From positions 32,001-96,000 of the forward strand of contig JAVZLM010000003.1 of assembly GCA_038883775.1 (NCBI GenBank): a stretch of 64,000 nt of DNA. Direction: 5' to 3'. Positions 32,239 to 51,957 of the stretch are shown piece after piece; within the stretch, counting starts at the first letter, position 1; the number at the start of each line of letters is the position of its first letter. The notes under the pieces are model-generated. The model was given only the letters and a program-made list of their open reading frames with translations, ran no database searches and was not told where the DNA came from. Source of the DNA: Candidatus Bathyarchaeia archaeon. Lineage in GTDB: Archaea > Thermoproteota > Bathyarchaeia > Bathyarchaeales > Bathycorpusculaceae. A program made the position numbers and the translations under genes.

Positions 32239-35200
32239 ATGGATATTAAAGAGAAAAAAGCGTATAGTCTATTGTCTGTTCTACTGCTTCTCGTTAGCTT
32301 CTTTGCAGCGGCAACGCCTGTGCTTAAAGCTCAAGCTCCTGAAACCGCCGTGAGGGTGTTTGTGAATGCGCCCTATCAGAGTGAGATGACCCTCGGCGAT
32401 GGGGTTACTGATGTTAGAGGAACAATTATCAGCATTGCTGTGGTTGTTGAGGATGTTGAGAACCTTTATGGTTTTGACATTAGACTGAAATGGCCTATGG
32501 AATACCTTGAATATGTTGACCACACGTTCACCATACCGTGGAATACGAGTCAAACGCCAATCGATCCAAGCCCCTATGCTGGCATTCTGTATGCGCCTGT
32601 GTCCCCTGTGCCTGGTCATGGATTGCACTTGGATGTGGGAGAAATTTGGGCTGTTATGGCTTCGCAGGCTCCTGCGCCATCCTTTTACGGTGACGGAACG
32701 GTTTTCGTTTTGAGGCTTAGATTGATTAAGCAGCAATACGCCTACGAGGGAGACGTTGAACTCGTTTTAAACATCACTACACATGACTTAGCCGGCAAAG
32801 TGCCGCCAGGCCCGCTCATAATTCCACACACGGCATACAATGGACGAATAATCCTTAAGGGAAGGGCTTTTGCTTATCCGCCACTTCCACTTCTGAAAAT
32901 ATTGCCAGAAACCATAAAAGACGTTAAACTCTGCGAGAACTTTGACATTAGTGTTTGGCTTATGGGTGAGGGCGGCGTTGACCTGGACCCATTCTGGGAC
33001 ATAAGCGGCTTCGACTTCACAGTAAACTTCAACTCAACCCTCCTAGAAGCAGTCGACGTCAAAATAGACCCAGCCAACTGGTGGCTAGGCTTCTACCCAG
33101 GCGGAGTCTGGACTACGGCAAAAGAAATTGACAATGTTACTGGAAGGGTTAGGATAGCCTTTATGGGTATACCTGACCCATCGCGGACTCCGCCACATGA
33201 TGCGCCACACGGGAAGGGCATCCTTGCCACAATAACCTTCCATGTCATCTACGAGTCTGAGAAGTATCCTCCGCCTTCTGCGCCCATATGGCTTGAAAAC
33301 CCGCTTCCACTAGCCCTCATAGACCTCTACAGCGAAAACGGCCTAATAAACCTCGGCAGCCCCGTATCAACAGACTGGCATGAAATCATGCCGGCATACT
33401 GTAAGCGTTTCGGCCTAACTTTCTGGGAGGATGTTGACGGCGACGGGCGCCTCAGCCCCAACGACCAAATCCGCCTCCTAAACAAAGAAACTGGCAAGTG
33501 GCTCCCCTACCGGGTCCACGCCGTCCCAGTAACCATGCGCGTTGACATCCTACCCTTCGAATACACAGACGAATACCACGAAGGCACAACAGCCTTCACA
33601 AACGCTTGGCCTCACCCAGGAATAGGCTCTTGGACTCCTCCAACGCCAATAACAGAGTATCCGCCTCCAGAAGGCTTCCCACCAGTTAATATATCCCTAA
33701 CCTATCTAGCCCAAGAAGTCCACAGCGTTGAAGTATTATTCCCCAACGGAACAAGAAGACTCCTCAACTACGGAACAGAATGGGACTACTACCCAGGAAC
33801 AAACCTAGTGGAAATAAAAATGATCCTTGGAACGCCAGAAACAGAATATTTCGTTGAAGACGTCAACATGACAACAGGCTGGGAAGGCTACGTACCCAAA
33901 GCAAGAGTCCTCTTAGACCCGCCGCCAACAGGTTGGATCCACCGCATAAGAGTCCAATTCCCAGAGGAAATACCGCCAGAATATCTAGACCTCTGGGATG
34001 GCTTCCAAGGCGAATACATAGAGCTTTTGCCATGGAAGATAAGTGGTGGATACCTATGGATGAACATGTGGGGCGAGCCAGGCTGGGACTATAACTGGGC
34101 TTATCACTACGCTCCAAACGTAGGCGTAGTAGCAATAGCTCCATGGGACAAGTTCCCGCCAGGCACAGAAGTTTGGATAGACTATTTTGCCCAGTCAACC
34201 CAAATATGGGTTAACTACACAGCCCTAGAACTAGAACCAAGATGGATTAAATCCGCAATAGGCGCAGCCGACTTCCCATTCACTGCACCATTAACAAGTG
34301 AATGGACAGAAATAATGCCGAATTTCGACAAAGAACATGTTATAACTGGCTGGACTGACACAGATGTTAACGGTCGCCTCAGCATAGGCGACATAATCCA
34401 ACTCTACGACGTGGAAACTGGCGAAACCAAACCCGCCAACATAACACTACTGGCAACAGGCCTAACCGTAATCCAAAAGCCCGTCATCTGCACCTTCGAC
34501 CTTGAAGACCCATTCTACGGCATGGTAGCCATAGTAGACGTGGCTGGCTTCCCCCACCCAGAAAGACCCATGTGCCCATGGCATAACCAACCCTACGCAG
34601 TCCCCATCCCCCACAAAACAGAACCAGCCACATACACAGCGCCTTTCAAGCCGCCAGGAAGATGGATAGACCTATACCTCTGGGGTATTGAAGCCTGCAA
34701 CGGAACAAGATGGGAATATGCAGACTTCGCCAAAGGATTAGGCCCCAACGAACCAGCCGACGCAGTTCAACCACAAGCAAAAGTGGTCCTCCGCGCCTTT
34801 GTAACCTACAACTTCCAGCCAATAGCAGGAAAATCAGTGACATTCGAACTCATATCCCCAACAGGAGAATTCCACATAATCAGAAGCGCCATAACAGGAG
34901 GCTGGGACACACCACTATACGGCATAGCTGAAGTAATAGTAACAATACCATGGCCATACCCAGACCCAGAAGGAAGAGTCTTCGGAACATGGAACGTCAT
35001 AGCCACAGTAGACATAGTAAAAGTAGTAATCAACGACACCCTAACCTTCAGATTAGGCTACCTAATAGACACAGTCTTCGTAATACCAGGCAAACAAACA
35101 TACCATAAAGGCGAACACATGAACTTCACCCTAACATACACAAGCATATCACACCAAATCCGCACAGCCTACTTCACAATAGTAGTCTACGACGAACTAG

Positions 35201-35400
35201 GCGTACCAATAGCATGGCAAATCCTAGGACCCTTCAACGTCACCTACGGCACCCACACCATAGTATTCGAATGCATGGAAGTACCCCACTGGGCATTCAG
35301 ATACAGATGCACGGCCTACGTCAACGCCCTAACAAGCCTGCCAACCCTCGGCGGAGCACAATACTGCCCAGAAATCTACGCAGTATTCGCAATAGAATAA
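32239..35400 (+). CDS. Large secreted protein: 2 cohesin-like domains (second with ~410 aa insertion) plus C-terminal Ig-like GGxxYCPE region
   Basis: Signal peptide; NLYGFDIRLKW..EYLEY; DISGFDFTVNFNSTLLE; no TM or dockerin at the C-terminus. Confidence 0.75.
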   Translation: MDIKEKKAYSLLSVLLLLVSFFAAATPVLKAQAPETAVRVFVNAPYQSEMTLGDGVTDVRGTIISIAVVVEDVENLYGFDIRLKWPMEYLEYVDHTFTIPWNTSQTPIDPSPYAGILYAPVSPVPGHGLHLDVGEIWAVMASQAPAPSFYGDGTVFVLRLRLIKQQYAYEGDVELVLNITTHDLAGKVPPGPLIIPHTAYNGRIILKGRAFAYPPLPLLKILPETIKDVKLCENFDISVWLMGEGGVDLDPFWDISGFDFTVNFNSTLLEAVDVKIDPANWWLGFYPGGVWTTAKEIDNVTGRVRIAFMGIPDPSRTPPHDAPHGKGILATITFHVIYESEKYPPPSAPIWLENPLPLALIDLYSENGLINLGSPVSTDWHEIMPAYCKRFGLTFWEDVDGDGRLSPNDQIRLLNKETGKWLPYRVHAVPVTMRVDILPFEYTDEYHEGTTAFTNAWPHPGIGSWTPPTPITEYPPPEGFPPVNISLTYLAQEVHSVEVLFPNGTRRLLNYGTEWDYYPGTNLVEIKMILGTPETEYFVEDVNMTTGWEGYVPKARVLLDPPPTGWIHRIRVQFPEEIPPEYLDLWDGFQGEYIELLPWKISGGYLWMNMWGEPGWDYNWAYHYAPNVGVVAIAPWDKFPPGTEVWIDYFAQSTQIWVNYTALELEPRWIKSAIGAADFPFTAPLTSEWTEIMPNFDKEHVITGWTDTDVNGRLSIGDIIQLYDVETGETKPANITLLATGLTVIQKPVICTFDLEDPFYGMVAIVDVAGFPHPERPMCPWHNQPYAVPIPHKTEPATYTAPFKPPGRWIDLYLWGIEACNGTRWEYADFAKGLGPNEPADAVQPQAKVVLRAFVTYNFQPIAGKSVTFELISPTGEFHIIRSAITGGWDTPLYGIAEVIVTIPWPYPDPEGRVFGTWNVIATVDIVKVVINDTLTFRLGYLIDTVFVIPGKQTYHKGEHMNFTLTYTSISHQIRTAYFTIVVYDELGVPIAWQILGPFNVTYGTHTIVFECMEVPHWAFRYRCTAYVNALTSLPTLGGAQYCPEIYAVFAIE
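32948..34643 (+). repeat. Patchwork direct repeat, copy A (copy B at 39393-41403)
   Basis: Blocks 32948-33108/39393-39553 (161 bp, 3 mismatches), ~33253-33591/~39698-40036, ~33850-33893/~40301-40344 and 34242-34643/41002-41403. Confidence 0.95.
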
Positions 35401-35420
35401 AACAATAAAAACTCAACCCA

Positions 35421-35433
35421 CCCCCCTTTTTAT
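35421..35433 (+). terminator. CCCCCCTTTTTAT terminator-like site
   Basis: Follows the stop via CAATAAAA and an AC-rich spacer; same layout at 48872-48905. Confidence 0.65.
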
Positions 35434-35489
35434 CATATCCAAAAATAACGTTTAAAAGAACAAGAACTAAATATTAATTGGGTTGAATT

Positions 35490-36642: not shown

Positions 36643-38562
36643 ATGCAAAAAAGGAAAATTTTACAATTTTTGTTTTTCTTTCTGATGCTGATTATATGTT
36701 TTGTTTTCGAGGAAGTTTCGATATACGCTAAAGAAAGCGTTTCTTTTTCAGCTGAGAGTGAAAAGCCACTAGTTTATGTGGATCCGCCGGAGGTTCGAAA
36801 CTTGGCTGTTGGTAAAACTTTTACGATTAGTGTTAAAATCGCTAATGTTACAAACCTTTACGGCGTTGACATTGAGTTTCACTGGAACCCGACAATTTTA
36901 GAATATATGGAACATACTGTTTTGATTCCAGTGGACGATTATCCCGGCGGCGTTTTATATAAGCCCATTATGCCGATTGCAAATACGGTGAATGCCACTG
37001 GTGGAACATATAAGGTTGCTTATGCTTCCATGCTTCCTGCACCATCATTTGACGGAAGTGGAACAGTTTTCACGATGAAGTTTAAAGTGAAGAGCATAGG
37101 ACGCTCTTTATTGGACATTTATACGAGTGATTTGTCTGGAAAAGTTCCTCCGGGACCACTTATCATATACCATGATGTTCAAGATGGATACTTTTCTAAT
37201 TATGTTCCTTCGAAAGCGAAAATTTACATAAATCCTCCAAAAATAATAGATTCAACCTTAACGCCCACATCCAATTTCACAGTAAACGTAAACCTTGAAA
37301 ACGTAGTTGAATTTGACACCTTCGAATTTTGGATAAACTATAACACGACAATTTTAGACGCCTTTAATGTCACGGTTAACCCAACATTTCCAGCGGCACA
37401 AACCAATTTACAAATTATGGAAGCAGAAGGCAAAATTCGAACCAAAGCTTGGCTTCAACCAGCATCCCCACCCTACACGGGCAATCTAATGCTTGCGTCA
37501 ATAATATTTAAAGTGGCAGATATTGGCGCGAGCACTCTCGACTTGTATAATATTACGTTAGTGGATGCATGGAAAGAAAATATTCCATATCAAGAACCTG
37601 GAGACGGCTTTTTCAGTAACATGTTATTAACAAAGCTTTTTATTGATCCTAGCGAAATCATTGACCCCACGATACGTCCACCCATGACTTTCAATATTTA
37701 TGTTAAAGCTGAAAATGTTATGGATATGTATGGTTACGAGTTCAAACTATCTTATGATACAAACGTTTTAACTGCTTTAGGCGTTAGGATTCTTCCGCCA
37801 ACAAATGATACGAGCTTCACTGTTACTACAAGTATTGACGACCCATCGGGCTACATATGGATTAAAGTTCAATATTATCCGCCAGCCGTGCCCATCACTA
37901 TAACTTCCGCAAAAGCATTAGTGGAGTTGTTGTTCCAAGTTCAATCGTTAGGAGTTACCGTTCTCGACTTGCATGATGAGAGGCTTACAGACGTAAATGG
38001 CAACCAAATCCGCGTAGACGAGGTTGGAGATGGCTTCTTTATGTCTATTATAAGAAATGTTGCTATTTTAAATGCTACAGCCACTCCGAACAAAGTTTAT
38101 CCTGGAAGGATGGTTACAATAACTGTTTTGGTGAAAAACTTGGGCATTGGAATGAGTGAAACATTCAATGTGACCGTTTACTATGACAACAACCCGATTG
38201 CAACACAGATCGTCGCAGACCTTGCTCCCCAACACGAAACGACATTGACGTTTTTGTGGGATACCACCGGCTTACAGCCATGCAACAATTATACAATAAG
38301 GGCTGAAGCAAGCCAGGTTCCATTCGAGGTTAATTTGGAGGACAATATTTACTTTGATGGTTGGGTGAAAATTAAAATATGGGGCGATGTGGATGGCGAC
38401 GGAGATGTTGACATTTATGATATCGCCCTGGCGTCAGCAGCCTATGGAAGCCGTCCCGGAGATCCAAACTGGAATCCAGAGGCGGATGTTGCACCGGAAT
38501 GGGGCTTCATCAATATTTATGATATGGTGACAATTTCGTCTTATTATGGACAGACGTGTTAG
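36643..38562 (+). CDS. Adaptor scaffoldin-like protein: 3 cohesins + CARDB + dockerin
   Basis: Three V/I-Y/F-V/I-D/N-P...F..NV...F..(W/Y)(N/D)..L...DG(Y/F)F units; GDVDGDGDVDIYD...ADVAPEWGFINIYD; start at ATG 36643. Confidence 0.82.
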   Translation: MQKRKILQFLFFFLMLIICFVFEEVSIYAKESVSFSAESEKPLVYVDPPEVRNLAVGKTFTISVKIANVTNLYGVDIEFHWNPTILEYMEHTVLIPVDDYPGGVLYKPIMPIANTVNATGGTYKVAYASMLPAPSFDGSGTVFTMKFKVKSIGRSLLDIYTSDLSGKVPPGPLIIYHDVQDGYFSNYVPSKAKIYINPPKIIDSTLTPTSNFTVNVNLENVVEFDTFEFWINYNTTILDAFNVTVNPTFPAAQTNLQIMEAEGKIRTKAWLQPASPPYTGNLMLASIIFKVADIGASTLDLYNITLVDAWKENIPYQEPGDGFFSNMLLTKLFIDPSEIIDPTIRPPMTFNIYVKAENVMDMYGYEFKLSYDTNVLTALGVRILPPTNDTSFTVTTSIDDPSGYIWIKVQYYPPAVPITITSAKALVELLFQVQSLGVTVLDLHDERLTDVNGNQIRVDEVGDGFFMSIIRNVAILNATATPNKVYPGRMVTITVLVKNLGIGMSETFNVTVYYDNNPIATQIVADLAPQHETTLTFLWDTTGLQPCNNYTIRAEASQVPFEVNLEDNIYFDGWVKIKIWGDVDGDGDVDIYDIALASAAYGSRPGDPNWNPEADVAPEWGFINIYDMVTISSYYGQTC

Positions 38563-38683
38563 CCTAATTTTTTCCATGTTCTCAATTTTAGACTTTTTAT
38601 TTTCTTCCTTTAGGCTTAACTTAGTTAAAGATAGAAAAATTCAAATATTCATCGCTAAAATACATAGAGTCTGCGGTGAAAGA

Positions 38684-41600
38684 ATGATGAATAATTTATG
38701 GAAAAAACTGAGTAACTGCTTATGGATTTCGTTGATTATTTCAGCGATGCTTTTATCCAATGTTCATGTGATGGCAGGAAATGAATATTCAATTCAGCAG
38801 GCACCAACAAAAGTGAGGGTAATACCCTCGCCTATAGAATTTAAAGGAGGAAACGCTACAGGTCAAGAGTTTGATGTTGCGGTTGTTGTTGAAAATGTAA
38901 CCAACCTTTATGGCATTGATATCAATATGACCTGGGATATAACATACCTTGAGTATGTCAGCCACGAATTCACAATGCCAGTAACCGACTATCCAAATCC
39001 CATTCCTCCAAGCCCCTATCCAGGAATTTTAAATGGTCCATTAATAACCACCATCGAAGATGTTAACCCAACCGCAGGTTACATAAGAGTTGGTAAGGCT
39101 ACAATGGCCCAACCTCCGCCTCCATCATTCAACGGAAACGGCACAGTCTTTGTTGTTAAATTTAGAGTGAAATATCATCCGCAAGAAGCTGACACAGTGA
39201 CTTATCTACATTTGGCCTCAACAGATTTGGCTGGCAAAATGCCGCCTGGGCCTCTTATTATACCCCACGAGCGTCAAGACGGTGTAGTTATTTTACGCTC
39301 CTATTTTGAGTATCCACCAATGCCATTATTAGATTTGAGAATAAACGGAGATAAGGAATACAATGCTATAAGAATAGGCGAGCGCTTTAACGTTAGTGTT
39401 TGGCTTATGGGTGAGGGCGGCGTTGACTTGGACCCATTCTGGGACATAAGCGGCTTCGACTTCACAGTAAACTTCAACTCAACCCTCCTAGAAGCGGTCG
39501 ACGTCAAAATCGACCCAGCCAACTGGTGGCTAGGCTTCTACCCAGGCGGAGTCCAAGTCTTTGCGGAGTCTATTGATAACACAGTGGGCAGAGTTAAAAT
39601 AGCCTTCATCGGCTTGCCTGACCCAACGCAAACGCCGCCTCATGATCCTCCGAATGGTAAGGGTGTTTTAGCCATCGTGACTTTTCACGTTATTTATGAG
39701 TCTGAGACGTATCCTCCGCCTTCTGCGCCCATATGGCTTGAAAACCCGCTTCCACTAGCCCTCATAGACCTCTACAGCGAAAACGACCTAATAAACCTCG
39801 AAACTCCAGTCTCAACAGACTGGCATGAACTCACCCCCACATACTGCAAACACTTCAATGTTACTTTCTGGGAGGATGTTGATGGCGACGGGCGCCTCAG
39901 CCCCAACGACCAAATCCACCTATTAGACAAAGAAACAGGCAAGTGGCTTCCCTACCGGGTCCACGCCGTCCCAGTAACCATGCGCGTTGACATCCTACCC
40001 TTCGAATACACAGACGAATACCACGAAGGAACAACAATATTCACCAACACGTGGCCGCCATATCATGCGCTTCTAAGTGGGCTAAAGCTTGATCCCGCGT
40101 ATCCCGTTATAACTTGGCCGCCAACATACGTTCCAGTGAACCTTACGCTGTCTTATGCAGCTTTGGACGTAAGCTCCGTTGAGGTTGAATTTCCAAATGG
40201 TACAAGAAGGCTGTTAACCGAAAACACTGAATGGGAATGGTTCTACGGGTCAGATCAACTTGAAATCAAAATACCGCTTGGCGTGCCAAAATCCTGCGCC
40301 TTCGTTGAGGGCGTCAACATGACAACAGGCTGGGAAGGCTACGTTCCGAAAGGCAGAGTTATACTCCCAGACCAAACAACAGGCTGGATTCACCGATTCG
40401 TCGTCACACCAGTCAAAGACAGAATAGACCTTTACGTAACCATAGTTGACAGCGCCGAATTTAATGTCACAAGAACCTATGCCATATACCTCAACGAAAC
40501 ACTAATAGAAACAGGAGAGCTAACCTATCTTGGAGAGCCAATAGAGCTATACACGGTCATAAATGACATAGACCCCGGATACTACGTCTTAAACTTCACC
40601 TTAGACAGTCCAGACGACAAACCATGGAGCGTAGAAATTTATGGAGCACTTTTCTACTCATATGAGGACGAATTCTACACAGAAGGCAACGTAACGATAT
40701 CATCTCCACTAACAGTCGATTTCACTGCGGATCCACCAACCTTAACCGTGCTTCCATTAGGCGAGCGGGGCGGCTACCTATGGATGAACATAGATGCTGA
40801 TGGAGACGGCGACGCTGAACCAGGATGGTACTGGAACATGGGATACGACTATGCCCCAAACAACCCAGTTGTTGCCATCGCCCCAACATGGACTGGAACA
40901 GAACCAACAGACAGATTCCCGTTAGGAACAGTTGTTACAATAGATTATATGGCTGAATGCACAAAAATGTGGGTTAACTACACAGCCATCGAGCCTACTA
41001 AATGGATTAAATCCGCAATAGGCGCAGCTGACTTCCCATTCACTGCACCATTAACAACCGAATGGAAAGAACTAATGCCATATCCAGACAAGCAACATGT
41101 TATAACTGGCTGGACTGACACAGACGGCAACCACCGCCTAAGCATAGGCGACATAATCCAACTCTACGACGTGGAAACTGGCGAAACCAAACCCGCCAAC
41201 ATAACACTACTGGCAACAGGCCTAACCGTAATCCAAAAACCAGTCATCTGCCTCGCCGACACATCAGACCCATTCTACGGCCAAGTAGCAATAGTGGACG
41301 TGGCCGGCTTCCCCCACCCAGAAAGACCCATGTGCCCATGGCACAACAAAGCCTACTCAGTCCCCATCCCCCACAAAACAGAACCAGCCACATACACAGC
41401 GCCCACACGGGGACCAATAGCGAATTTCACTTATACCCCAAGCGAACCAGTGCAATTTGAAGAAATAACATTCGACGCTTCTCTAAGCTATTCTCCAGCT
41501 AACAAGACAATTGTCAGTTATGTTTGGGATTTTGGTGACGGTTCTCCAGTTGTTGTTGAATCGGATCCAATAACAACCCATGCATACCTCAGTTCAGGAG

Positions 41601-42753: not shown

Positions 42754-45700
42754 ATGATTAAAAATTGTTTAAAAACTTTCATATTTATTATGCTTCTGTT
42801 TAGCATAAATCTGGGAACCGTTAAAGATGTTTTTTCGGGCACCTCACCAAAAAGCGTTATAGATTATCCCATAGAATCCGTAGAGCATGAACTTATAGTA
42901 AATTGGATAACTCCACCTCAAGATCTTAATCTTAGAGAATCAACTATTATAAAAGTTAGCGTAACTAACAGCGGCTTAGAAAACGAGAGTGATGTGCAAT
43001 TATCTCTTTCAATTAACGATAGTATTGTTGCTTCCAAAACTTTTCCGTTGTTAATTGCAGGTTCTATGGGCACTTTGGAGTATGAATGGACTCCTGCTGT
43101 GGAGGGACAATACAATGTTACTGCTTATTCACTACCAGTAGTTAATGAAACAGACACAGCAAACAATGTTGTGTCTAAAATAGTTCAAGTTTGTCGTGTT
43201 GTTGTTTGTGTAGAACCAGAAACGGTCACGGCGAATGTAAACGAAACCTTCACTATTAACGTGAAAATTGCTAACGTTACGAGACTTTTTGGTTTCGACA
43301 TTCAATTCCGCTGGAGTCCAATAACTCTAAAATATGTCAGTCATAAGGTTAAAGTGCCAAAGGGTTCAACCTATCCTGACGGCATTCTTTACGGCTCTCC
43401 ATTAATAATTAAAAATATGGTGAACGAATCTGGAGTATCTGAGGCTTCTCCAGGAACTCTCTTTTGGCTCTCTGTTGTTTCTTTTGGCACTTCTTTGTCG
43501 TTTAATGGAACAGGAATAGCATTCAATATGACTTTTAAAGTATTGCAAAAAGGCGAATGTGACATATACTTTACATCCGTGGATCTTTCCGATAAGAAAG
43601 GAAAGTCGATTCCCCATGAAGTTAGAGACGGCTACTTTTACATGGAAGGATTAGGCTCTGTGCCCGTGGCTAACTTCACTTGTTGGCCGTCGAAGCGTGT
43701 GGATAGCGTAGATTGCGTTGTTGTTGGTAAGTCTGTTGTTTTTAATGCTTCTTTGAGTTATGATCCTGATGTGGGTGGCGGAATTACCTTGTACATGTGG
43801 GATTTTGGTGATGGAACACGTTTAAACACAACTGAATCCCTCATAAACCACACATATGCTGCAGAGAAAACTCGAAATCCTGTTTCCTTAACCGTTGTGG
43901 ATGTTGAGAATTCAACAAGTAGGCTGTTTTATCGGTTAATAGATATTGTTAACCCAAAGCCTGTGGCTAGATTCACGGTTTGGCCTCCTGATGGACACCC
44001 GGTTGTTGGTAAGTCTGTTGTTTTTAATGCTTCTTTGAGTTATGATCCTGATGTGGGTGGCGGAATTACCTTGTACATGTGGGATTTTGGTGATGGAACA
44101 CGTTTAAACACAACCGAACCCCTCATAAACCACACATATTTGGAAGTTACTGGTATAAGTGCACGTGTAGTGCGGTTAGTTGTCAAGGACGCTGAAAACC
44201 TTACAAGCGAACCGGCCACTTTCTCTTTGTATGTTATAGGCTCGCGTGACGTTAACGTAAAGAATGTTGAAGTATATCCAACCTTGGTTATGCCTGGAGA
44301 TGTTGTGGTTGTTAACGCTACCATAGCTAGTTTGGTAACACAATCAGCGTATAATTTTACAATGGGCTTTGATGTAAAGGTGTTTTGGACAGATTATAGT
44401 GAAATCATGCAAGGTGTGATTGATCAGAAAAAGGTTGAATTGGCCACAAACGTTAGCAAAATTTTTACTTTCTCTTGGAACACAACGGGCATGTCCGAAG
44501 GAGCTTATTGGGTTTGGGTTGAAGCCCTAAATGTTCCTCACGAAGATGATTTTACTAATAATATTTGGCGCAGTTCTGAGGCTGTTAATGTTACATTGAG
44601 AGAGGTTCACGATGTGGCGATTAAAGATTTAACCCTAGCTGTTAGTGTTGAAACAAAGGAATTTGCGCCGCCGGCGATTGTTGGAGAGAATGTAACTATG
44701 CGCGTTTATGTTATGGCAAATGGCACTGTTTCAGAGACTTTTAACGCCACTTTAAGAGTGATGGACTCGGAAGGTGAAGTTTTGTTTAGCAAAATTTGGC
44801 TTAATGAAGGTTTAGCAGCGCGAGAGACAAAGGAGTTAAAGTGCGTGTTTAACACGGAGGATGCGGCTGCTGGTAAGTATATAGTTTCTGTTAACGTCAC
44901 AATTGCGGAGGTGGATGAGCATCCTGATGATAACCTTAGAAGTGTGGAATTTAGAATTATTAGGTCTCCATTTTTATTAGTTGAACCCTTGCCGAGCCTC
45001 ATAGTTGTAGGAGATACCGTTGTTTTTAATGCTTCTGCCAGTTATCATTTAGACGGGGCTATTGTAGGGTATAGATGGGAGTTTTTTGACCCTAATGGAT
45101 TTCTTAGGCGTGTGGAAACAAGTAAAGCTGTTGTTAACTTTACATTCCCTGAGCAAGGTGGTGTTGGGGTATGGGTTATTAAGTTGATCGCGGAGGATAA
45201 TTATACAATAACTTACGGTGCTGATAGGCCCTTGACTGAGCCTTACCGCAAGGTTTTTGAGGTGAATGTTAAAGGAGCCAGTGTTATAGCTCTTCAGCTT
45301 AATCCAGCAACTATACAATATGGTCAATCCATCATTATAAATGGAACGTTAACGCCGCCCAGAGAAGGCGTGAATGTTACTGTTAGGGTTAATGGTACTG
45401 TTTTGGCTACAGTGTTAACTGGTGATATGGGCAACTTTACAATTACTTGGAAGCCAGACAAAGCTGGAACCTACCTAATCGAGGCATCTTGGCCTGGCGA
45501 TGCTGAAACGGCTCCTTCGGCAGATGAAAAAATCTTGATAGTTAGTAAAGCAGTGAGCAGTATAACTTTAAATGTTTCTCCTTCAACGGTTTCTGTTGGG
45601 GAAAATGTTATCATAAGCGGGGTTCTTTCTCCAGAGGAAATCGGAGCTCATGTGAATGTTACTGTTAGGGTTAATGGTACTGTTTTGGCTACAGTGTTAA

Positions 45701-45933
45701 CTGGTGATATGGGCAACTTTACAATTACTTGGAAGCCAGACAAAGCTGGAACCTACCTAATCGAGGCATCTTGGCCTGGCGACGCCAATTCTCTTCCATG
45801 CTCATCGGGACAGCGGCTTGTGAAGGTTGAAGCTCCACAGTTTAATGTTATGCCTTATGTTGCAGTTGCAATAGTAGCAATAATTGTTGTTGCATTAGCC
45901 GTATATCTTGTCAAGTTTAGAAAGAGAGGGTGA
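42754..45933 (+). CDS. Membrane-anchored scaffoldin-like protein: CARDB, cohesin, PKD x2, CARDB x2, PKD, Ig x2, TM (paralog of the 29720 gene)
   Basis: RLFGFDIQFRWSPITLKY; WDFGDG x2; DNYTITYGADRP..YRK shared with 29720; TM plus KFRKRG. Confidence 0.78.
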   Translation: MIKNCLKTFIFIMLLFSINLGTVKDVFSGTSPKSVIDYPIESVEHELIVNWITPPQDLNLRESTIIKVSVTNSGLENESDVQLSLSINDSIVASKTFPLLIAGSMGTLEYEWTPAVEGQYNVTAYSLPVVNETDTANNVVSKIVQVCRVVVCVEPETVTANVNETFTINVKIANVTRLFGFDIQFRWSPITLKYVSHKVKVPKGSTYPDGILYGSPLIIKNMVNESGVSEASPGTLFWLSVVSFGTSLSFNGTGIAFNMTFKVLQKGECDIYFTSVDLSDKKGKSIPHEVRDGYFYMEGLGSVPVANFTCWPSKRVDSVDCVVVGKSVVFNASLSYDPDVGGGITLYMWDFGDGTRLNTTESLINHTYAAEKTRNPVSLTVVDVENSTSRLFYRLIDIVNPKPVARFTVWPPDGHPVVGKSVVFNASLSYDPDVGGGITLYMWDFGDGTRLNTTEPLINHTYLEVTGISARVVRLVVKDAENLTSEPATFSLYVIGSRDVNVKNVEVYPTLVMPGDVVVVNATIASLVTQSAYNFTMGFDVKVFWTDYSEIMQGVIDQKKVELATNVSKIFTFSWNTTGMSEGAYWVWVEALNVPHEDDFTNNIWRSSEAVNVTLREVHDVAIKDLTLAVSVETKEFAPPAIVGENVTMRVYVMANGTVSETFNATLRVMDSEGEVLFSKIWLNEGLAARETKELKCVFNTEDAAAGKYIVSVNVTIAEVDEHPDDNLRSVEFRIIRSPFLLVEPLPSLIVVGDTVVFNASASYHLDGAIVGYRWEFFDPNGFLRRVETSKAVVNFTFPEQGGVGVWVIKLIAEDNYTITYGADRPLTEPYRKVFEVNVKGASVIALQLNPATIQYGQSIIINGTLTPPREGVNVTVRVNGTVLATVLTGDMGNFTITWKPDKAGTYLIEASWPGDAETAPSADEKILIVSKAVSSITLNVSPSTVSVGENVIISGVLSPEEIGAHVNVTVRVNGTVLATVLTGDMGNFTITWKPDKAGTYLIEASWPGDANSLPCSSGQRLVKVEAPQFNVMPYVAVAIVAIIVVALAVYLVKFRKRG
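43720..44139 (+). repeat. Intragenic PKD repeat, 138 bp with 2 mismatches
   Basis: 43720-43857 vs 44002-44139. Confidence 0.92.
45370..45782 (+). repeat. Intragenic Ig-like repeat, 131 bp identical
   Basis: 45370-45500 = 45652-45782. Confidence 0.92.
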
Positions 45934-45990
45934 ACTCTTCCTTCCTGTTTGTTTGAAGGTTAATTCGGAGATCTTTGGAGGGGCTTCATT

Positions 45991-46386
45991 ATGTTTCATA
46001 AAAAATTGTATAAGTGGATTTGTTTAATTTTAGGTTTTGTGGGAATGATTAATGTGGCTACTGTGGGGCTTTATTTGGTTGTAACATGCCTTAGTTTGTC
46101 TCCTTTTCCAGGGGGCGAACATTTTCTTTTTTATGCTTATGCGGCAGCTATTTTAGCGGTTGTTTCCATGTTGCTTCTGGTTTGTGGTATTTGCTTGATG
46201 TGGAGAGGGCGTTTGCGGATGGGAGGCGCATTTAATTTTTTTGCTGGAGTATTTTTTGTTTCCTTTTACTTTTACTTTTCATTTTTTTCTCAACCGTCGA
46301 TGCTTGGATGGTTTTGGCCTTTTGGTTGTTTGCTTTTTCTTCCATTATTTTTGAGTGGCGTTATTGGAATGTTTGTTAAAGGTTAA
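45991..46386 (+). CDS. Hypothetical 4-TM membrane protein
   Basis: 131 aa hydrophobic ORF with a GGAGG RBS. Confidence 0.7.
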   Translation: MFHKKLYKWICLILGFVGMINVATVGLYLVVTCLSLSPFPGGEHFLFYAYAAAILAVVSMLLLVCGICLMWRGRLRMGGAFNFFAGVFFVSFYFYFSFFSQPSMLGWFWPFGCLLFLPLFLSGVIGMFVKG

Positions 46387-46423
46387 ATTTTGGCTGGGTT
46401 TTGGTATAGAAAAAAGTTTCAGA

Positions 46424-46434
46424 AAACCTTAAAT
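46424..46434 (+). promoter_or_regulatory. BRE/TATA AAACCTTAAAT upstream of the SBP gene
   Basis: The identical 11-mer is also at 48915-48925 and 52026-52036. Confidence 0.65.
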
Positions 46435-46480
46435 GGCAATTCGCGTTACAATAGTTTTTGAGAGAAAGGAGAAAGAGGTT

Positions 46481-48871
46481 ATGAATTCGAAAAAAGTTGC
46501 TTTGATGTTTGTATTGTCGCTGGTTCTCTTTGCTTCTTTAATGGTTCATTCGTCTCCTAGGAAGGTTGCATTGGCTGCCGAGGTTCAGAAGGGACCGCGG
46601 GCTCCAGAGTTTCAGATGATTCTTAAGGCTACGACTGAGGCTGCTTATGCCTCTTTGGTTGCTGGTGAACTTGAGTATATAGGCGGTTTGCTTCCAGCCC
46701 AATTTGAGGATGCTCAGAGGCGTCCCGAAATAACAACTTATCTCGAACTTATTTATAGCATGCAAGATGAAGCCATTATGAGCAACTATTCCATGCCCTC
46801 TCAGAAGTCTCATCCTAACGCTCCACCAGGCTCCAGCGGAATCCTCCGCAGTCCAACAAACGATGTGAACTTTAGGAAGGCTGTAAACCACCTGTTCAAC
46901 AAGGACTGGATCTGCGAAACCGTTTGGAAGGGGCTTGTTGAAAGAATTGATGTGCCAATTGCTGCCCCATCCAAGGGTTGGATGAACACAAGCTGCTTCA
47001 ACCTTTACCCATTCAGCTTTGAACAGGCAATAGCCAAACTCACGGACCCAGCCGTTTACGGAAGCGCTCAAAACGGCTGGTACGACTACGACGGAGACGG
47101 CATAAGAAACTATCCTCTTGACTGGCCGGGCGTTCAAGGCCAACCAGGCGTTAGAGACGAGCCAAACATGCTTCCACTTCAGTACTGGATTTACGACGAC
47201 CCACCGCAGAGATACGAGTTCGCCCACAACGTGGCAGAAAACCTAAGAAGCATAGGCATCCCAGTAGATGAGCACGTTGCACCCTTCCAGCTTATAAACG
47301 ACCAGTGCTTCTGCGCCTACGATTACCACCTAAGCTCAGACGGTTGGGCTGTGGGAAGGTTCCCAACATACATACAATTCTTCTTCGACAGTGAACTGTG
47401 GATTCCAGGATATTGTGGAGCCAACTGCTACACAGGTGGCAATGAGCCTTGGACTGCTGAGATAGACGAGGCTGTTAGGGCTGTAAGGTATGCTGCAACC
47501 CCAGAGGATAGCAGAGTAGCATGCCTTTACGCTCAGTGGCTGCTTGTGGACAAGTGGGCTGTTGGCATGATTCCGCTTTACACGCCTAAGGCTGCATACG
47601 CCGTTAGAAACGTTTTGGGCGCCGTCAAATTCTTCGGAGCATCGCCCTTCAACGAGTTAGCCATGATGAACATGTTCCGAATTGACGATCCAAACGCCCC
47701 AATAAGGATGGGATTCGACTTCCCACCAAACGTTAACACGATCTACTGCATGTGGGCTGTGGGCTACACAATAATGCAGATGACATGGGAATTCCCAATG
47801 CAGCTTAACCCATTAGACCCCATGTATGAGATGCCTTGGGGCGCCATAGACTGGGACGTAGGAACATGGGTTGATCCCGCTGACGGCAAAACAAAAACTG
47901 TCACCAAATGGTGGTTTAGGCCAGGAACCAAATACATAGCGCCGGTAACAGGAGAACCCTTAGACGACTTCACTGCGGCATCAAACATTTTCGGAATGTG
48001 GTACGTCTATCAGACGACAGATGCCTGGTGGTGGAGCGACTTCAGAGACCTCCACCACATAAGAGTAGACCCAACAAACCCATACTACTTCGAAATATAC
48101 TTCAACAGGTTCAGCTGCTGGTTCTACTTGGATACGCCCTATTCCACAAACTTGGGAATCTACCCGCCAGCCTACAAGGTTTATCCGCTATGCGACAACC
48201 CAGACCACACGTACACAAGCGGGCAACCAGTAGACCCAATAGTTAGAGTGTTCGTTGAAGGCGAAAATATGTCGACTCCAGGCGACTTGGCATTGCCATG
48301 GCAAACGAAATATGCGCCAGTAGAAATAGTCTCCATAGTACAGCAGGGCGTTGGCCCACTAAAGCCGTCAGACACAACGGGCAATTATGACTACGAAATG
48401 GTTAAGGGCAAAATCCACATATACAAAGACCTGCCAAACGGAGCAGTAATAACAGTCACATACTACGGCAGAGGAGAAGCCTACGGCACAACACCAGGAG
48501 ACATTCCATGGGACAAAATCTTCATAGGAGCAGGAAAATGGTACATGACCTACTTAGACCTACTGGCAGGCGCATACTTTAAGGCTAACAGAAACTACTG
48601 GGCTGAAACTCCGCCATTAGGCGAAACAGACTGGTACTACTGGAGAATTGAAGGACCCAAACCAAGAAAAGGCTACTTCCAAATCAACATATATGACGTG
48701 GTAGTAGCCACAGGCGCCTACGGAACCCAAGGCAGATACACCCCAGACCCAGCCTTCACAGTATCCGCAGACCTAGCCCCATCAGCCGACGGCCTAGGAG
48801 GCAAAATAGACATCTACGACGTAGTCACCATAACAGGAAGCTACGGAACCAAATTCTGGGAAATCAAATAA
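46481..48871 (+). CDS. Opp/Dpp-type (family 5) ABC substrate-binding protein with C-terminal dockerin
   Basis: PTNDVNFRKAVNHLFNK, A..L..IGIPV, IPLY, FIGAGKWY..Y..FKANRNYW; tail INIYDVV..TGAYG...DLAP...GKIDIYDVV..TGSYG; directly upstream of oppBC. ATG 46433 lies in the TATA box, so the start is placed at 46481. Confidence 0.8.
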   Translation: MNSKKVALMFVLSLVLFASLMVHSSPRKVALAAEVQKGPRAPEFQMILKATTEAAYASLVAGELEYIGGLLPAQFEDAQRRPEITTYLELIYSMQDEAIMSNYSMPSQKSHPNAPPGSSGILRSPTNDVNFRKAVNHLFNKDWICETVWKGLVERIDVPIAAPSKGWMNTSCFNLYPFSFEQAIAKLTDPAVYGSAQNGWYDYDGDGIRNYPLDWPGVQGQPGVRDEPNMLPLQYWIYDDPPQRYEFAHNVAENLRSIGIPVDEHVAPFQLINDQCFCAYDYHLSSDGWAVGRFPTYIQFFFDSELWIPGYCGANCYTGGNEPWTAEIDEAVRAVRYAATPEDSRVACLYAQWLLVDKWAVGMIPLYTPKAAYAVRNVLGAVKFFGASPFNELAMMNMFRIDDPNAPIRMGFDFPPNVNTIYCMWAVGYTIMQMTWEFPMQLNPLDPMYEMPWGAIDWDVGTWVDPADGKTKTVTKWWFRPGTKYIAPVTGEPLDDFTAASNIFGMWYVYQTTDAWWWSDFRDLHHIRVDPTNPYYFEIYFNRFSCWFYLDTPYSTNLGIYPPAYKVYPLCDNPDHTYTSGQPVDPIVRVFVEGENMSTPGDLALPWQTKYAPVEIVSIVQQGVGPLKPSDTTGNYDYEMVKGKIHIYKDLPNGAVITVTYYGRGEAYGTTPGDIPWDKIFIGAGKWYMTYLDLLAGAYFKANRNYWAETPPLGETDWYYWRIEGPKPRKGYFQINIYDVVVATGAYGTQGRYTPDPAFTVSADLAPSADGLGGKIDIYDVVTITGSYGTKFWEIK

Positions 48872-48892
48872 GCAATAAAACAACCAAACACT

Positions 48893-48908
48893 CCCCCCTT
48901 TTTATTTT
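48893..48908 (+). terminator. CCCCCCTTTTTATTTT terminator-like site
   Basis: Between the SBP stop and the permease promoter. Confidence 0.65.
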
Positions 48909-48914
48909 AAAGCC

Positions 48915-48925
48915 AAACCTTAAAT
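48915..48925 (+). promoter_or_regulatory. BRE/TATA AAACCTTAAAT upstream of oppB
   Basis: About 34 nt before ATG 48959. Confidence 0.65.
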
Positions 48926-48958
48926 ATTCACAGTTTCATCTCATAATAAGAGGGGAAA

Positions 48959-49951
48959 ATGGGCTTCAAAACCTACCTAGTTAAAAGGACCATATATAGC
49001 CTAGCACTTTTATGGGCTATAATGTCAGTAAACTTCATAATCTTCTCCCTTATACCAGGAGACCCAATCGGCAGATGGGTTAAAAACCAAGAGGCAGCCA
49101 TATCAAAAGAAGAAATAATGGAGTTAAGGCGAATCTACGGGCTGGATATGCCACTCCACGAAAGATACTTCTTGTATCTTCAAAACATGTTAACATGGAA
49201 CTTTGGAAGATCACGATACACACAAGCAGACATAAAAACAGACATAATGAATAGACTTGGAAACACCCTCTTACTCTTGGGAATAGCAGACGGCTTCACA
49301 ATATTTGCCGGAACATTGTTAGGCGTATTAGTTGCATACAAAAGAGGCTCAAAATTAGACACAGCATTAGTCACAGCCTCCCTAGGCACATACAGCCTAC
49401 CAGTCTTCTGGTTAGGATGGCTAATACTCTTCTTTTTCGCCATATACCTAAAATGGTTCCCAGTTGGGGGAATATACCCAGCCGAATGGATGAAACAGTG
49501 GCCCACAAGCATAGTAGAAATAATTGCTGGAAGACTGAAACACATAGTCCTCCCAGTTTTAACCCTTTTCATCTTTAACGTAGGCGGATGGCTACTATTA
49601 ACAAGGTCATGCGTACTCGAAGCCATAACCGAAGACTACGTAGTAACAGCAAGGGCAAAGGGATTAAGCACAAGAAAAGTCTTGTTAAACCACGTCTTAA
49701 GAGTTGCATCCCTACCAATCGTCACATCTCTAGCTTTAACATTAGCTGGACTTTGGAGCGGCGCAATTGTAACCGAAACCGTTTTCAGTTATGAGGGAAT
49801 GGGAAGGTGGATTTGGAGGGCCATCGGATTACAAGACATACCAATCATGTACGTTGTTTTCTACATATCCGCCCTCACAATAATCATTGCCAACTTCATG
49901 GCAGACCTCATTTATGGAGTATTAGATCCAAGAATAAGAGTCGGGGGATAA
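48959..49951 (+). CDS. oppB: Oligopeptide/dipeptide ABC permease B
   Basis: PGDP, YGLD.P, EDYVVTARAKGL, ETVFSYEGMG, ADLIYGVLDPRIR. Confidence 0.92.
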   Translation: MGFKTYLVKRTIYSLALLWAIMSVNFIIFSLIPGDPIGRWVKNQEAAISKEEIMELRRIYGLDMPLHERYFLYLQNMLTWNFGRSRYTQADIKTDIMNRLGNTLLLLGIADGFTIFAGTLLGVLVAYKRGSKLDTALVTASLGTYSLPVFWLGWLILFFFAIYLKWFPVGGIYPAEWMKQWPTSIVEIIAGRLKHIVLPVLTLFIFNVGGWLLLTRSCVLEAITEDYVVTARAKGLSTRKVLLNHVLRVASLPIVTSLALTLAGLWSGAIVTETVFSYEGMGRWIWRAIGLQDIPIMYVVFYISALTIIIANFMADLIYGVLDPRIRVGG

Positions 49952-49953
49952 AC

Positions 49954-51573
49954 ATGGCCACATACAAAGAGAGAGCAGCCTTCACACTTAAAAGACTAAA
50001 AAATTTCTGGAGGGATTTCTCCAGAAGCAAAAGAGGAGTCCTAGGAGTTGTCATCATACTATTCTACATTATAGTAGCCTTAATAGGTCCACTATTCATA
50101 ACAATTGACCCCCTCTTTCCAACAATGCCAGGATACTACCCAGCAGGCCCAGCTCCAATAGCTGATGTTCTATGCAAACCCACATGGTACAAGTACTTTC
50201 CAGGCAGAAGCGGCATGTCAGAAAACATGAAGTTAATATCAGATCACGAGTTCTCCTCAATCAAAGCAATGGAGGCTTGGGATCAAAAGACTAACGCTCC
50301 AAACTTAATAAGCTATGCATATAACCCAACAGCGGGATCCCACAACAACGACGGATGCATCGAAATATCCTATAACCGCCCAGCCGATTACACTAGCACT
50401 GAAACACCATACCTTCAAATAACCCACAACTTTACCTATCCATACCAGGAAAGCCCAAGAAAATTCTGGATACACCTCTCCTTCCTCCTCAACGGCACAA
50501 TAACAAGGGAAAGTTACGTGTCAATAGAAGTATCATTTTACAGAATTCAAACCCCCCCACCGCCATTAAATTATACGTACCCAAGTTCTCTAACAACGTA
50601 CATAGACTCATTAATAATTTACAAATACCCACTACATAGCATAAATACAACTAGTCCCTCCGCAACCTGGACTCACATGTGGATCACCTCAACCAGAGAC
50701 AGCATAATGTACGATCCAAAATACTACCTCAAACCATGCGCCATCATATTTCCAACATCAGGCAATTACACATTTGAAATTAAAGTAAGCTTTTACGACA
50801 CAGCAACCACTGAAAGAGAAATAAAAGTTTATCTCGACAATTTAGACGTGCTAATTTACGGAGAAGCCTACGGCATACTCGGAACAGACTATAAGACAGG
50901 AGGCCCAAGAGACAACCTAATATCCCTCGTATACGGCGCAAGAATCTCAATATTCGTCGGTTTACTCGCAACCTTTATCTCCGTCAGCCTCGGCTTACTC
51001 GTAGGATTAACAGCAGGATACGTTGGAGGATTAGGCGACGAAGCACTAATGAGACTTGCAGACTTCCTCATGTGCCTCCCAGGCTTGCCATTATATATTG
51101 TGCTGATGGTAGTCTTAGGAAGCTCCATATGGAACGTAATATTACTCATGTCCTTCCTTGGATGGATGGGTTTCTCACGCCAAATAAGATCCATGACCCT
51201 ATCATTACGCGAAAGAGCCTTCGTTGAAGCCGCCAAGGCCGCCGGAGCAGGCAAAGTCTGGATCCTATTTAAGCATATTCTCCCAAACGTCTTCGCGCTA
51301 GTTTACATAGCATTAGCAGTTTCAGTTCCAGGAGTTGTATTAACAGAAGCAACATTAAGTTGGCTCGGACTATTCGATCCAAAACAAATATCATGGGGAA
51401 GAATGCTTCACGAATTCTCCCAAGCAGGTGTTGCAGTTGCAAGAGGCATCGAAGATTACTGGTTCTGGGTGATTCCACCAGGCATAGCCATCGCCTTATT
51501 AGCGATAGCCTTCGTGTTGCTCGGCTACTCTTTAGATGAAATATTAAATCCCAAGCTTAGAGTAAGACGTTAA
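49954..51573 (+). CDS. oppC: Oligopeptide/dipeptide ABC permease C with large extracellular insertion
   Basis: ILGTD..G.RD, YGARISI.VG, ERAFVEAAKAAGA, HILPN, DEILNPKLR; start at ATG 49954. Confidence 0.9.
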   Translation: MATYKERAAFTLKRLKNFWRDFSRSKRGVLGVVIILFYIIVALIGPLFITIDPLFPTMPGYYPAGPAPIADVLCKPTWYKYFPGRSGMSENMKLISDHEFSSIKAMEAWDQKTNAPNLISYAYNPTAGSHNNDGCIEISYNRPADYTSTETPYLQITHNFTYPYQESPRKFWIHLSFLLNGTITRESYVSIEVSFYRIQTPPPPLNYTYPSSLTTYIDSLIIYKYPLHSINTTSPSATWTHMWITSTRDSIMYDPKYYLKPCAIIFPTSGNYTFEIKVSFYDTATTEREIKVYLDNLDVLIYGEAYGILGTDYKTGGPRDNLISLVYGARISIFVGLLATFISVSLGLLVGLTAGYVGGLGDEALMRLADFLMCLPGLPLYIVLMVVLGSSIWNVILLMSFLGWMGFSRQIRSMTLSLRERAFVEAAKAAGAGKVWILFKHILPNVFALVYIALAVSVPGVVLTEATLSWLGLFDPKQISWGRMLHEFSQAGVAVARGIEDYWFWVIPPGIAIALLAIAFVLLGYSLDEILNPKLRVRR

Positions 51574-51576
51574 ACC

Positions 51577-51957
51577 TTAACCTTTACTCAAAGAATCTAT
51601 TTTTTCATCTAAAAATCTCCAAAAATCATCCTCAATTTTTTCCAAAGCCTCTAAAGACTTCAAACCTTTCGATAAAAACCATCCACCGCCCAAAAATGAT
51701 GTCAACCAGCCAAACTTAACAAACGAACGAGAACGCCTTCCAGCCTCAAAAACCACCAAGAAATCATCAGGTTTCCCTCTAATAAAAACTTCAATGTGTT
51801 CGCATAAGTCATGAATGCGCCTAGGAGCTGCTGTAATCTTATACTCTTCCGATGAACACTGCATATTCGTCAAAAAACCCCTATGCTTAAAGAAACCCTC
51901 TAAAACTTCACACAGCAACTTTAAGTTAATATTTTTTCGAATCCACCGACTCTGCAT
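51577..51957 (-). CDS. Hypothetical protein inserted antisense within the opp cluster
   Basis: 126 aa ORF with a GAGG RBS that fills the oppC-oppD gap. Confidence 0.7.
   Translation of the reverse strand: MQSRWIRKNINLKLLCEVLEGFFKHRGFLTNMQCSSEEYKITAAPRRIHDLCEHIEVFIRGKPDDFLVVFEAGRRSRSFVKFGWLTSFLGGGWFLSKGLKSLEALEKIEDDFWRFLDEKIDSLSKG

Follow-up and report, generated by a model that had tools for sequence, protein, structure and literature searches.

Gradients from G/T- to A/C-ending codons along surface-protein genes, with kilobase strand patches, in a bathyarchaeal genome

The genes at the locus

The window considered here is a 64,000-nucleotide stretch of DNA from a Candidatus Bathyarchaeia archaeon (C3:32001-96000 in contig coordinates, from a 1.69-Mb assembly of 28 contigs, 40.7% G+C and 91% complete); positions given without a contig prefix are counted within it. 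Its subject is a group of long surface-protein genes and their neighbours, foremost gene A (32239..35400) and the gene for a solute-binding protein of the SBP_bac_5 family (the SBP gene, 46481..48871), whose third codon positions pass from a majority of G and T near the start to almost pure A and C at the stop codon. The gradient is real and unusually strong, and it looks tied to expression rather than to DNA breaks. All but two of the sequencing runs listed for the stretch carry the label hot springs metagenome, and close relatives of the lysyl-tRNA synthetase (LysRS), at 92-97% identity, are in metagenome-assembled genomes (MAGs) of Candidatus Bathyarchaeia. The flagged region encodes secreted surface proteins with PKD, CARDB, cohesin and dockerin-like parts, together with the SBP_bac_5 binding protein, two Opp-type permeases and two ATPases; tRNA genes are absent from the 64-kb window. 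In the list that follows, codon endings are expressed as the third-position keto skew k3, that is (G+T-A-C)/n in bins of 50 codons, or as the probability of an A/C ending, P(A/C); z values refer to within-gene slopes ranked among 882 confident genes of at least 200 codons.

8143..10827, plus strand: cohesin-domain surface gene; k3 from +0.3 to -0.82, slope z=-7.5.
10907..11923, plus strand: gene with cohesin, CARDB and dockerin-like parts, inside an A/C patch at 10014-11656; k3 -0.8 to -0.56.
28036..32724, plus strand: G/T-leaning domain, 62% G/T at third positions and T-dominated (hidden Markov model (HMM) segmentation).
32239..35400, plus strand: gene A, a secreted surface protein of 1053 codons without a Pfam family; P(A/C) from 0.36 to ~0.95.
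35401..35431, plus strand: terminator-like 3' flank of gene A; 20 nt of near-pure A/C, then C6 (35421-35426) and T5 (35427-35431).
38546..42649, plus strand: gene B, a paralogue of gene A with 64-78% identity over residues 42-814.
43650..46756, plus strand: second G/T-leaning domain, 66% G/T at third positions.
46481..48871, plus strand: the SBP gene, SBP_bac_5 solute-binding protein; likely start ATG at 46481.
48872..48958, plus strand: spacer between the SBP and permease genes; an A/C-rich stretch, C6 (48893-48898) and T5 (48899-48903).
48959..51573, plus strand: two Opp-type permease genes, A/C-ending along their whole length, k3 -0.24 to -0.84.
51577..51957, minus strand: conserved gene for a protein of 126 aa without a Pfam family; k3 +0.40 on its own strand.
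57626..61252, plus strand: CBM96/PKD/InlB-repeat surface gene; a gradient in the same direction but weaker, +0.4 to -0.1, z=-6.0.

The first of the two G/T-leaning domains takes in two surface genes of the PKD/CARDB kind and runs ~160 codons into gene A; the second takes in a PKD/Big_3_5 surface gene and a small, G/T-rich membrane open reading frame (ORF, 45991-46386) and runs ~90 codons into the SBP gene. The minus-strand ORF at 51577..51957 is a genuine gene: 8 of the 40 other genomes searched have a full-length homologue. In at least five relatives its homologue lies on one contig with a homologue of the C-terminal domain of gene A.

Reality and shape of the gradient

Attention was drawn to these genes by hand counts in an initial annotation of the letters, and the four counts are exact: 15 of 20 third positions are G/T at 32401-32460 and 20 of 20 are A/C at 35341-35400 (stop codon counted), and in the SBP gene 17 of 19 are G/T at 46622-46678 and 19 of 19 are A/C at 48782-48838. 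Along gene A as a whole, binned over 32215-35400, k3 goes from +0.24, +0.36 and +0.32 in the opening bins to -0.88, -0.92 and -0.80 in the closing ones (the third positions of bin 35065-35214 are 26 A, 22 C, 1 G and 1 T); along the SBP gene it goes from +0.48 and +0.52 to -0.92. Fourfold-degenerate sites change in parallel with k3 in both genes, and codon positions 1 and 2 are without trend along either. When synonymous codons are shuffled within the gene, the observed difference between the first and the last third is reached in 0 of 5000 trials for gene A (z=12.4), the SBP gene (z=6.8), 8143-10827 (z=7.0) and 57626-61252 (z=5.9); the same shuffle finds nothing unusual in three control genes, a subtilase and two PKD genes. 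No other gene among the 882 has a slope as steep as those of gene A (z=-11.9) and the SBP gene (z=-8.8), and 8143-10827 and 57626-61252 are within the top ten. The skew is thus kept at synonymous sites over full genes, where the initial annotation had allowed that it might disappear. The annotation was also right that the region 8143-11923 trends alike, 8143-10827 having a gradient and 10907-11923 lying in an A/C patch (its codon position 1 has likewise moved towards A/C), and that the bias crosses into the minus-strand gene 51577-51957, since 88 of its 126 third positions are A/C on the plus strand. Lying on the minus strand within a plus-strand A/C domain, that gene therefore has G/T-ending codons of its own.

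What had been called a switch is better described as a slope. A three-state HMM of the window (22% G/T in the A/C state, 49% in the neutral state and 63% in the G/T state) sets a G/T domain before an A/C domain at both main genes (28036-32724 then 32988-35606; 43650-46756 then 46990-51549). In four surface genes a logistic model that is linear in codon position is better than the best single step, the log-likelihoods being -574.5 against -588.8 for gene A and -488.9 against -493.0 for the SBP gene. The intercepts of the four fits, -0.58, -0.61, -0.59 and -0.84, correspond to a P(A/C) of ~0.35, and the slopes are 2.9, 2.9, 2.05 and 1.0 per 1000 codons (8143-10827 has the intercept of -0.59 and the slope of 2.05); the shared intercept equals the composition of the upstream G/T genes, in which P(G/T) is 0.63. 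In the SBP gene there is a step near codon 80 and then a linear climb to 96% A/C.

The downstream end of the skew is sharp: it breaks off just past the stop codon, where an A/C-rich stretch runs into C6 T5, and composition is neutral after the flank of gene A. An A/C-rich stretch with a C run and a T run follows stop codons at 35401-35431, 48872-48903, 10828-10865 and 42650-42675, and similar flanks lie downstream of homologous genes in other genera; the arrangement is probably the terminator signal of this lineage. The SBP-permease spacer also holds a promoter-like box, AACCTTAAATA, at 48916-48926. Boxes of the form AACCTTAAAT(A/G), promoter-like in the manner of BRE/TATA, lie 45-85 nt upstream of the SBP, permease and ATPase genes (46425-46435, 48916-48926 and 52027-52037); the window has 5 of them, with 3.3 expected, which is not above chance. 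A scan for sigma-70 promoters and hairpin terminators is uninformative for an archaeon. On the minus strand, ORFs of 151 aa (32281-32736) and 229 aa (46538-47227) lie antisense to the G/T-rich 5' parts of gene A and the SBP gene. Depletion of stop codons on the A/C-rich complement most likely accounts for these frames, which are apt to mislead gene callers. Antisense overlapping genes were rejected as the source of the G/T parts: the third positions of ORF 46538-47227 are first positions of the SBP gene, and the PKD genes are without any long antisense ORF.

That the skew appears to reach untranslated flanks would suit selection at the level of RNA, either for pairing of a G/U-rich 5' part with an A/C-rich 3' part or for messages that cannot fold (A and C do not pair with each other, so that A/C-rich RNA is unstructured). 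However, the inverted repeats that join the halves number only 2 and 3 in the two regions and are short and imperfect (16-27 nt, 74-88% complementary), which also tells against the long-range RNA pairing offered as an alternative in the initial annotation, and selection on RNA leaves unexplained the DNA-strand skew that opposite-strand neighbours have in common. We find this explanation scarcely credible.

The gradient is not peculiar to the flagged genes. A paralogue of the SBP gene at C3:27079-29391, with 59% identity, has the same gradient in weaker form (+0.28 to about -0.4), and about half of the comparable third positions of the two genes differ; the SBP gene itself has no match at E<=1e-30 in the 40 relatives searched. 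For LysRS, the amino-acid-corrected profile (G/T in the 5' part, A/C in the 3' part) follows the average over 9 relatives with >=85% identity (r=0.83); in 52 distant relatives the correlation is weak and not significant (r=0.35). Transitions are depleted in the A/C patch of LysRS, where they make up 4 of 21 and 7 of 18 differences versus 15-28 of 24-37 elsewhere, and A<->C exchanges dominate, a pattern that fits constraint keeping A/C. Homologues of gene A in other genera tend towards the same gradient, and the A/C patches of gene B (39433-41461) repeat the fine pattern of gene A where identity is 80-92%, in stretches with few synonymous differences. Contigs from other hot-spring samples join genes A and B (34333 to 41094, 39511 to 33067); their differences from the window amount to 2-13% in gene A and to <1% in the PKD and SBP genes. 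These observations suggest that the surface protein undergoes gene conversion and evolves fast.

Patches across the genome

The initial annotation had placed the pattern inside major surface genes; it is instead genome-wide. About 14% of coding DNA lies in non-neutral patches (396 segments in 1.66 Mb of coding DNA, of median length ~430 bp), and there are at least four sign changes within the 64-kb window. The coding strand is the A/C-rich one in 257 (163 kb) of the 311 patches of a single orientation and the G/T-rich one in the other 54 (26 kb); 27 further patches span genes of both strands. Patches are not preferentially anchored at 3' ends: 54 of 213 boundaries lie within 120 nt of the 3' end of a gene and 56 of 224 within that distance of the 5' end, with 13% expected by chance. 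Slopes within genes are over-dispersed (the standard deviation, SD, of z is 1.95), and 59 of the 882 genes have z<-3. A/C endings rise towards the 3' end in 62% of the 169 genes of at least 500 codons (Wilcoxon p=8.6e-5), a modest effect, and the average first-to-last change in k3 becomes larger in longer genes, reaching -0.19 at >=800 codons. A link to signal peptides, assigned by crude hydropathy, was not significant: the 36 genes that look signal-peptide-bearing have a mean slope of 0.85 versus 0.20 in 717 others (p=0.13), and the difference between end and start gives p=0.057. The genes richest in G/T endings encode genuine enzymes (sugar epimerase, formamidase, aldolase, PyrI, aIF5B, glycosyltransferases), and many of the extreme loci are accessory surface, sugar or virus-like genes.

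The most extreme patch of the genome, C5:51-4723, comprises five co-oriented genes with A/C at 88% of third positions; positions 1 and 2 are shifted too, and Thr, Ile, Gln and Lys are strikingly abundant in the encoded proteins. Among these are DUF5305 and DUF11 proteins and one that reads as signal-peptidase-like, without a Pfam match. The gene at 10907-11923 and C20:4119-7193 have paired dockerin-like repeats at the C-termini of their products, and several neighbouring genes have cohesin domains, which hints at a cohesin-dockerin surface assembly.

Patches so short, most of them with boundaries inside genes, and the accessory nature of many extreme loci recall a mosaic history in which A/C and G/T tracts were joined by horizontal transfer or gene conversion; the unmatched SBP gene, the stretches of 80-92% identity shared by genes A and B and the foreign-sample contigs that join the two paralogues are of a piece with it. 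A few tracts, however, would not yield a smooth log-linear gradient with a common intercept in four genes, and the gradient is present also in a paralogue with heavily diverged synonymous sites and in the housekeeping LysRS of 9 relatives. A transferred tract, moreover, keeps its own coding-strand skew, so that transfer cannot create adjacent G/T and A/C genes and the question moves to the donor. We consider such a history improbable.

The initial annotation had proposed that the double strand recurrently breaks, or recombination starts, at each switch, with deamination of resected 3' tails leaving G/T on the left and A/C on the right. The setting is thermophilic, to judge from the run labels, and the order, G/T then A/C on the plus strand, is found at three places in the window. 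It occurs again at C6:9552-12662 / 15000-18430, within a sugar-modification locus (C6:9552-18430) in which a 3-kb G/T-rich domain precedes a 3.4-kb A/C-rich one. The axis of change is also of the deamination type, being purely transitional (C<->T, A<->G) at constant purine content, with a loss of C on the depleted strand that equals or exceeds the loss of A (C/(C+T) 0.06-0.19, A/(A+G) 0.1-0.4). Recurrent breaks predict, however, that skew should peak at the switch. In kataegis-like clusters of strand-coordinated mutation at resected breaks, mutations are densest beside the break; the likeness to the present case is that the affected strand changes at one point and on a kilobase scale. Here, no peak of density is seen beside a break: the A/C skew is weakest at the switch, grows away from it, is strongest 2.5 kb off and then stops at a terminator. 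Nor do the switches have a preferred sense. Steps from G/T to A/C versus steps from A/C to G/T, at >3 SD, count 16/27, 11/16, 7/10 and 6/8 at four scales, and domain junctions count 13 versus 17 (a genome-wide symmetric HMM overlooks the weaker G/T domains of the window, so that the junction counts are a partial test, and the step-change test was added). The skew takes its sign from the coding strand in 257 of 311 patches, and the gradient turns up both in the 59%-identity paralogue elsewhere and in the relatives' orthologues. Its shape largely refutes the recurrent break, which is left very improbable; what survives of the proposal is its chemistry, with which the transition-only axis, the greater or equal loss of C and the strand component described below agree.

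Proposed codon selection, strand bias and their precedents

One transition axis, with A/C-ending codons at one end and G/T-ending codons at the other, describes the variation of synonymous sites, and in the A/C patches every codon family is shifted, ATA and CTA included. The codon table of the window's A/C patches is nearly the same as that of thermosome, EF-2, LeuRS and S4 combined (ATA 0.63 and 0.63, CCA 0.70 and 0.70, ACA 0.58 and 0.59, GAC 0.81 and 0.81), genes whose coding-strand third positions have C/(C+T) of 0.71-0.81 and A/(A+G) of 0.78-0.86. Thermosome, EF-2 and S4 are among the 20 most A/C genes, as are Rpb5, a NusA-like KH protein and an SSB-like protein. Families of the thermosome/EF-2/S4 type are highly expressed in archaea generally, and on that general knowledge the A/C codon set is the one used by highly expressed genes. 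Gene A, gene B and the SBP-permease genes use it as well, and the long surface genes with the gradient are probably highly expressed. Both the G/T-rich 5' part of gene A (32277-32613, 32389-33047) and its A/C-rich part are represented among contigs from an RNA-seq run and from a library labelled metatranscriptomic, so that one transcript probably carries both extremes. Over 30 bins, the depth of contigs from run X4 relative to the DNA runs X2 and X3 correlates with k3 (rho=-0.58, p=7e-4), and the G/T genes at 36003-38670 and 42673-46007 have little or no contig cover from X4 and X7; contig depth is unfit to rank genes and uncovered parts prove nothing, and both were discarded as evidence of expression. 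ARAGORN finds 36 tRNAs, with G34, U34 and C34 species in many codon boxes and mostly in single copy; it finds no Lys, Tyr or Trp tRNA, for which intron-containing genes or assembly gaps may be responsible.

The reading that we favour, tentatively and at somewhat less than an even chance, is expression-linked, position-dependent selection for A/C codons over a G/T-leaning background, together with a local strand-asymmetric transition bias. Selection on synonymous codons would strengthen along the coding sequence, because late failure of translation wastes more, and would raise P(A/C) from a G/T-leaning baseline of ~0.35 to ~0.95 at the stop codon. The favoured codons would be those that pair exactly, by Watson-Crick rules, with G34 or U34 tRNAs, and an opposing local mutational background would push the coding strand towards T and G. 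Superposed on this, a regional DNA-strand transition bias with a reach of 1-3 kb would enter neighbours of either orientation and so account for the G/T endings of the minus-strand gene 51577. We infer that selection rather than mutation produces the gradient, and infer likewise that the chemistry of the bias is deamination. The log-linear rise, its restriction to third positions in the flagged genes, the codon set, the recurrence in other genes and genomes and the depletion of transitions in LysRS fit codon selection that strengthens along the gene. As a nonsense-error model has it, the log-odds rise with codon position in four window genes; genome-wide, the rise is weak and significant.

In one account (PMC13271495), selection against ribosome drop-off strengthens along coding sequences in yeast, and what this text and the work of Gilchrist and co-workers describe as position-dependent codon adaptation is like the present case in two respects: preferred codons are commoner away from the start, and their log-odds rise about linearly from a baseline set by mutation, to a larger extent in long genes. 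What differs here is a rise of P(A/C) from 0.35 to 0.95 within one gene, a flat thermosome gene and a coexisting strand component. The position-dependent codon effects of yeast and E. coli are changes of a few percent.

A good deal weighs against this reading. Strong slopes of the opposite sense (z>+3) are found in 36 of the 882 genes. Average genes begin near k3 -0.03 and not +0.3, so that the G/T baseline must be local, and for LysRS the skew of the whole gene can be as low as -0.36 or as high as +0.31, depending on the genus. Along the thermosome gene k3 stays flat at ~-0.7 from the first codons on: high expression alone therefore gives no gradient from a G/T baseline. C34 tRNAs for G-ending codons are present, and G endings accordingly need not be slowly read. 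The remaining objections concern DNA strands rather than messages. The coding skews of convergent neighbours are anticorrelated (r=-0.33 to -0.43, and -0.38 with stricter gene filters), as are those of divergent neighbours (r=-0.16 to -0.30); for windows in opposite genes the plus-strand skews correlate at +0.27 at less than 600 bp, and this value comes down to a long-range baseline of ~-0.2 by 3-4.5 kb, so that the reach of the strand component is 1-3 kb. PyrB (k3 -0.40, plus strand) and PyrI (k3 +0.34, minus strand) share one strand skew at C5:14131-15633; being divergent, and encoding subunits of one enzyme, they are a natural control for equal expression. Each domain of the C6 sugar-modification locus likewise spans real genes of both strands, and at C6:15948-18430 a UDP-glucose dehydrogenase-like gene (minus), a hexapeptide transferase (plus) and an epimerase (minus) lie on one A/C-rich plus strand. 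Genome-wide, k3 correlates with the corresponding skews of codon positions 1 (k1, r=0.33) and 2 (k2, r=0.18), and with that of non-coding flanks to 40-70 nt (r 0.29 downstream and 0.31 upstream), although the flanks carry terminator and promoter motifs that could alone yield the last of these.

Selection on codons cannot explain the anticorrelation of neighbours, PyrB and PyrI, the link to codon positions 1 and 2 or the link to flanks; together with the flat thermosome gene and effects on amino acids, these point to a deamination-like strand bias outside selection. Restriction of the skew to synonymous sites of a gene's own strand, as translational selection would have it, holds inside gene A and the SBP gene and fails genome-wide. 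The statement in the initial annotation that the bias is not simple codon preference is accordingly right for the part that belongs to the DNA strand, which crosses 51577-51957, PyrI/PyrB and the C6 locus. On the scale of replichores no strand component emerges. Across 20-kb bins of 9 contigs, the orientation-independent part of the skew stays within about +/-0.15 and has no run of one sign, unlike the constant sign over a replichore of replication-associated asymmetry; nor, with 396 non-neutral segments and at least four sign changes in the window, are the switches confined to origins and termini. Fork termination, another alternative in the annotation, finds no support at that scale. Borrelia, Treponema and Lawsonia intracellularis reportedly have strand-specific codon usage that arises from replication skew. 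Their main codon axis, too, opposes G/T-ending to A/C-ending codons, but its sign is set by leading or lagging strand over whole replichores, whereas here it is set mostly by the coding strand in patches of ~430 bp.

It is possible, if rather unlikely, that the whole pattern is a mutational footprint tied to the polarity of transcription, the template strand gaining C-to-T and A-to-G changes or the coding strand being better repaired. The effect would grow towards the 3' end if, for example, forks running head-on into the gene stalled there and exposed a single-stranded template to the heat of the spring; co-directional forks would be in local excess over the upstream G/T domain and account for its composition, the gene serving as a polar fork barrier. 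In favour of this are the strand component that crosses orientations over 1-3 kb at C6:15948-18430, PyrB/PyrI and 51577-51957, a skew that appears to extend to non-coding flanks and extends, in the C5:51-4723 cluster, to amino-acid usage, and the variation of LysRS skew among genera. The depletion of C beyond that of A is in the order expected of hydrolytic deamination, and a sawtooth with its sharp end at the terminator suits forks that enter from the 3' end. Its polarity, on the other hand, is the inverse of the canonical one. To our knowledge, in all described transcription-associated asymmetries it is the exposed non-template strand that gains G+T. Gene A is G/T-rich in its 5' part, which is covered by the same RNA-library contigs as the rest; transitions in the A/C patch of LysRS are depleted, not raised (a lower rate on the coding strand would match that too); patch boundaries are without preference for 3' ends (25%, the same as for 5' ends, with 13% by chance); and the PyrI side of PyrB and the C6 locus do not fit the geometry of a fork barrier.

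Transcription-associated asymmetry in E. coli, yeast and mammals results from deamination of the non-transcribed strand. It resembles the bathyarchaeal pattern in being restricted to transitions and linked to transcription units, and it reaches untranslated flanks, as the bathyarchaeal skew may do; the G/T-leaning bathyarchaeal genes, T-dominated, have the expected sign. The strongly expressed genes have the inverse, their coding strand keeping A and C instead of gaining G+T with expression. An undescribed mutational process of thermophilic Bathyarchaeia, polar with transcription but opposite in sign to the classical kind, growing towards the 3' end by deamination of the template or repair of the coding strand and spilling over 1-3 kb, is in our view unlikely. 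If it were true, the history of expression would be written into DNA and would reshape codon use, even the amino-acid content of surface proteins. In vertebrate mitochondria, synonymous C-to-T and A-to-G changes form a gradient in proportion to the time spent single-stranded. The two cases share a monotonic gradient, the same two transitions and comparable extremes; the mitochondrial gradient runs over a whole small genome with one mode of replication, whereas the present one restarts in each gene and ends at terminators. Conversion by 3'-biased cDNA was considered as another route, and finds no support in the 91%-complete genome, which has no RVT_1 match.

Position-dependent codon adaptation, strand-specific codon usage and mitochondrial gradients of single-strand time are known kinds; a surface-level literature search met no description of within-gene keto-skew gradients, or of an inverted transcription-linked asymmetry, in archaea. 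What distinguishes the present case is the amplitude, an A/C-versus-G/T axis that restarts in each gene, and the coexistence of kilobase strand patches with it in a thermophilic archaeon: a passage from 35% to 95% A/C endings within one gene, and kilobase patches that cross orientation, far exceed the usual size. In MAGs of this kind such patches will mislead codon-based predictors of expression, detectors of horizontal transfer and gene callers, and will bias phylogenies built on third positions. Both signals are large and separable by position, orientation and paralogy, and they make this lineage a natural test bed for selection on translation versus strand-asymmetric damage and repair at synonymous sites.

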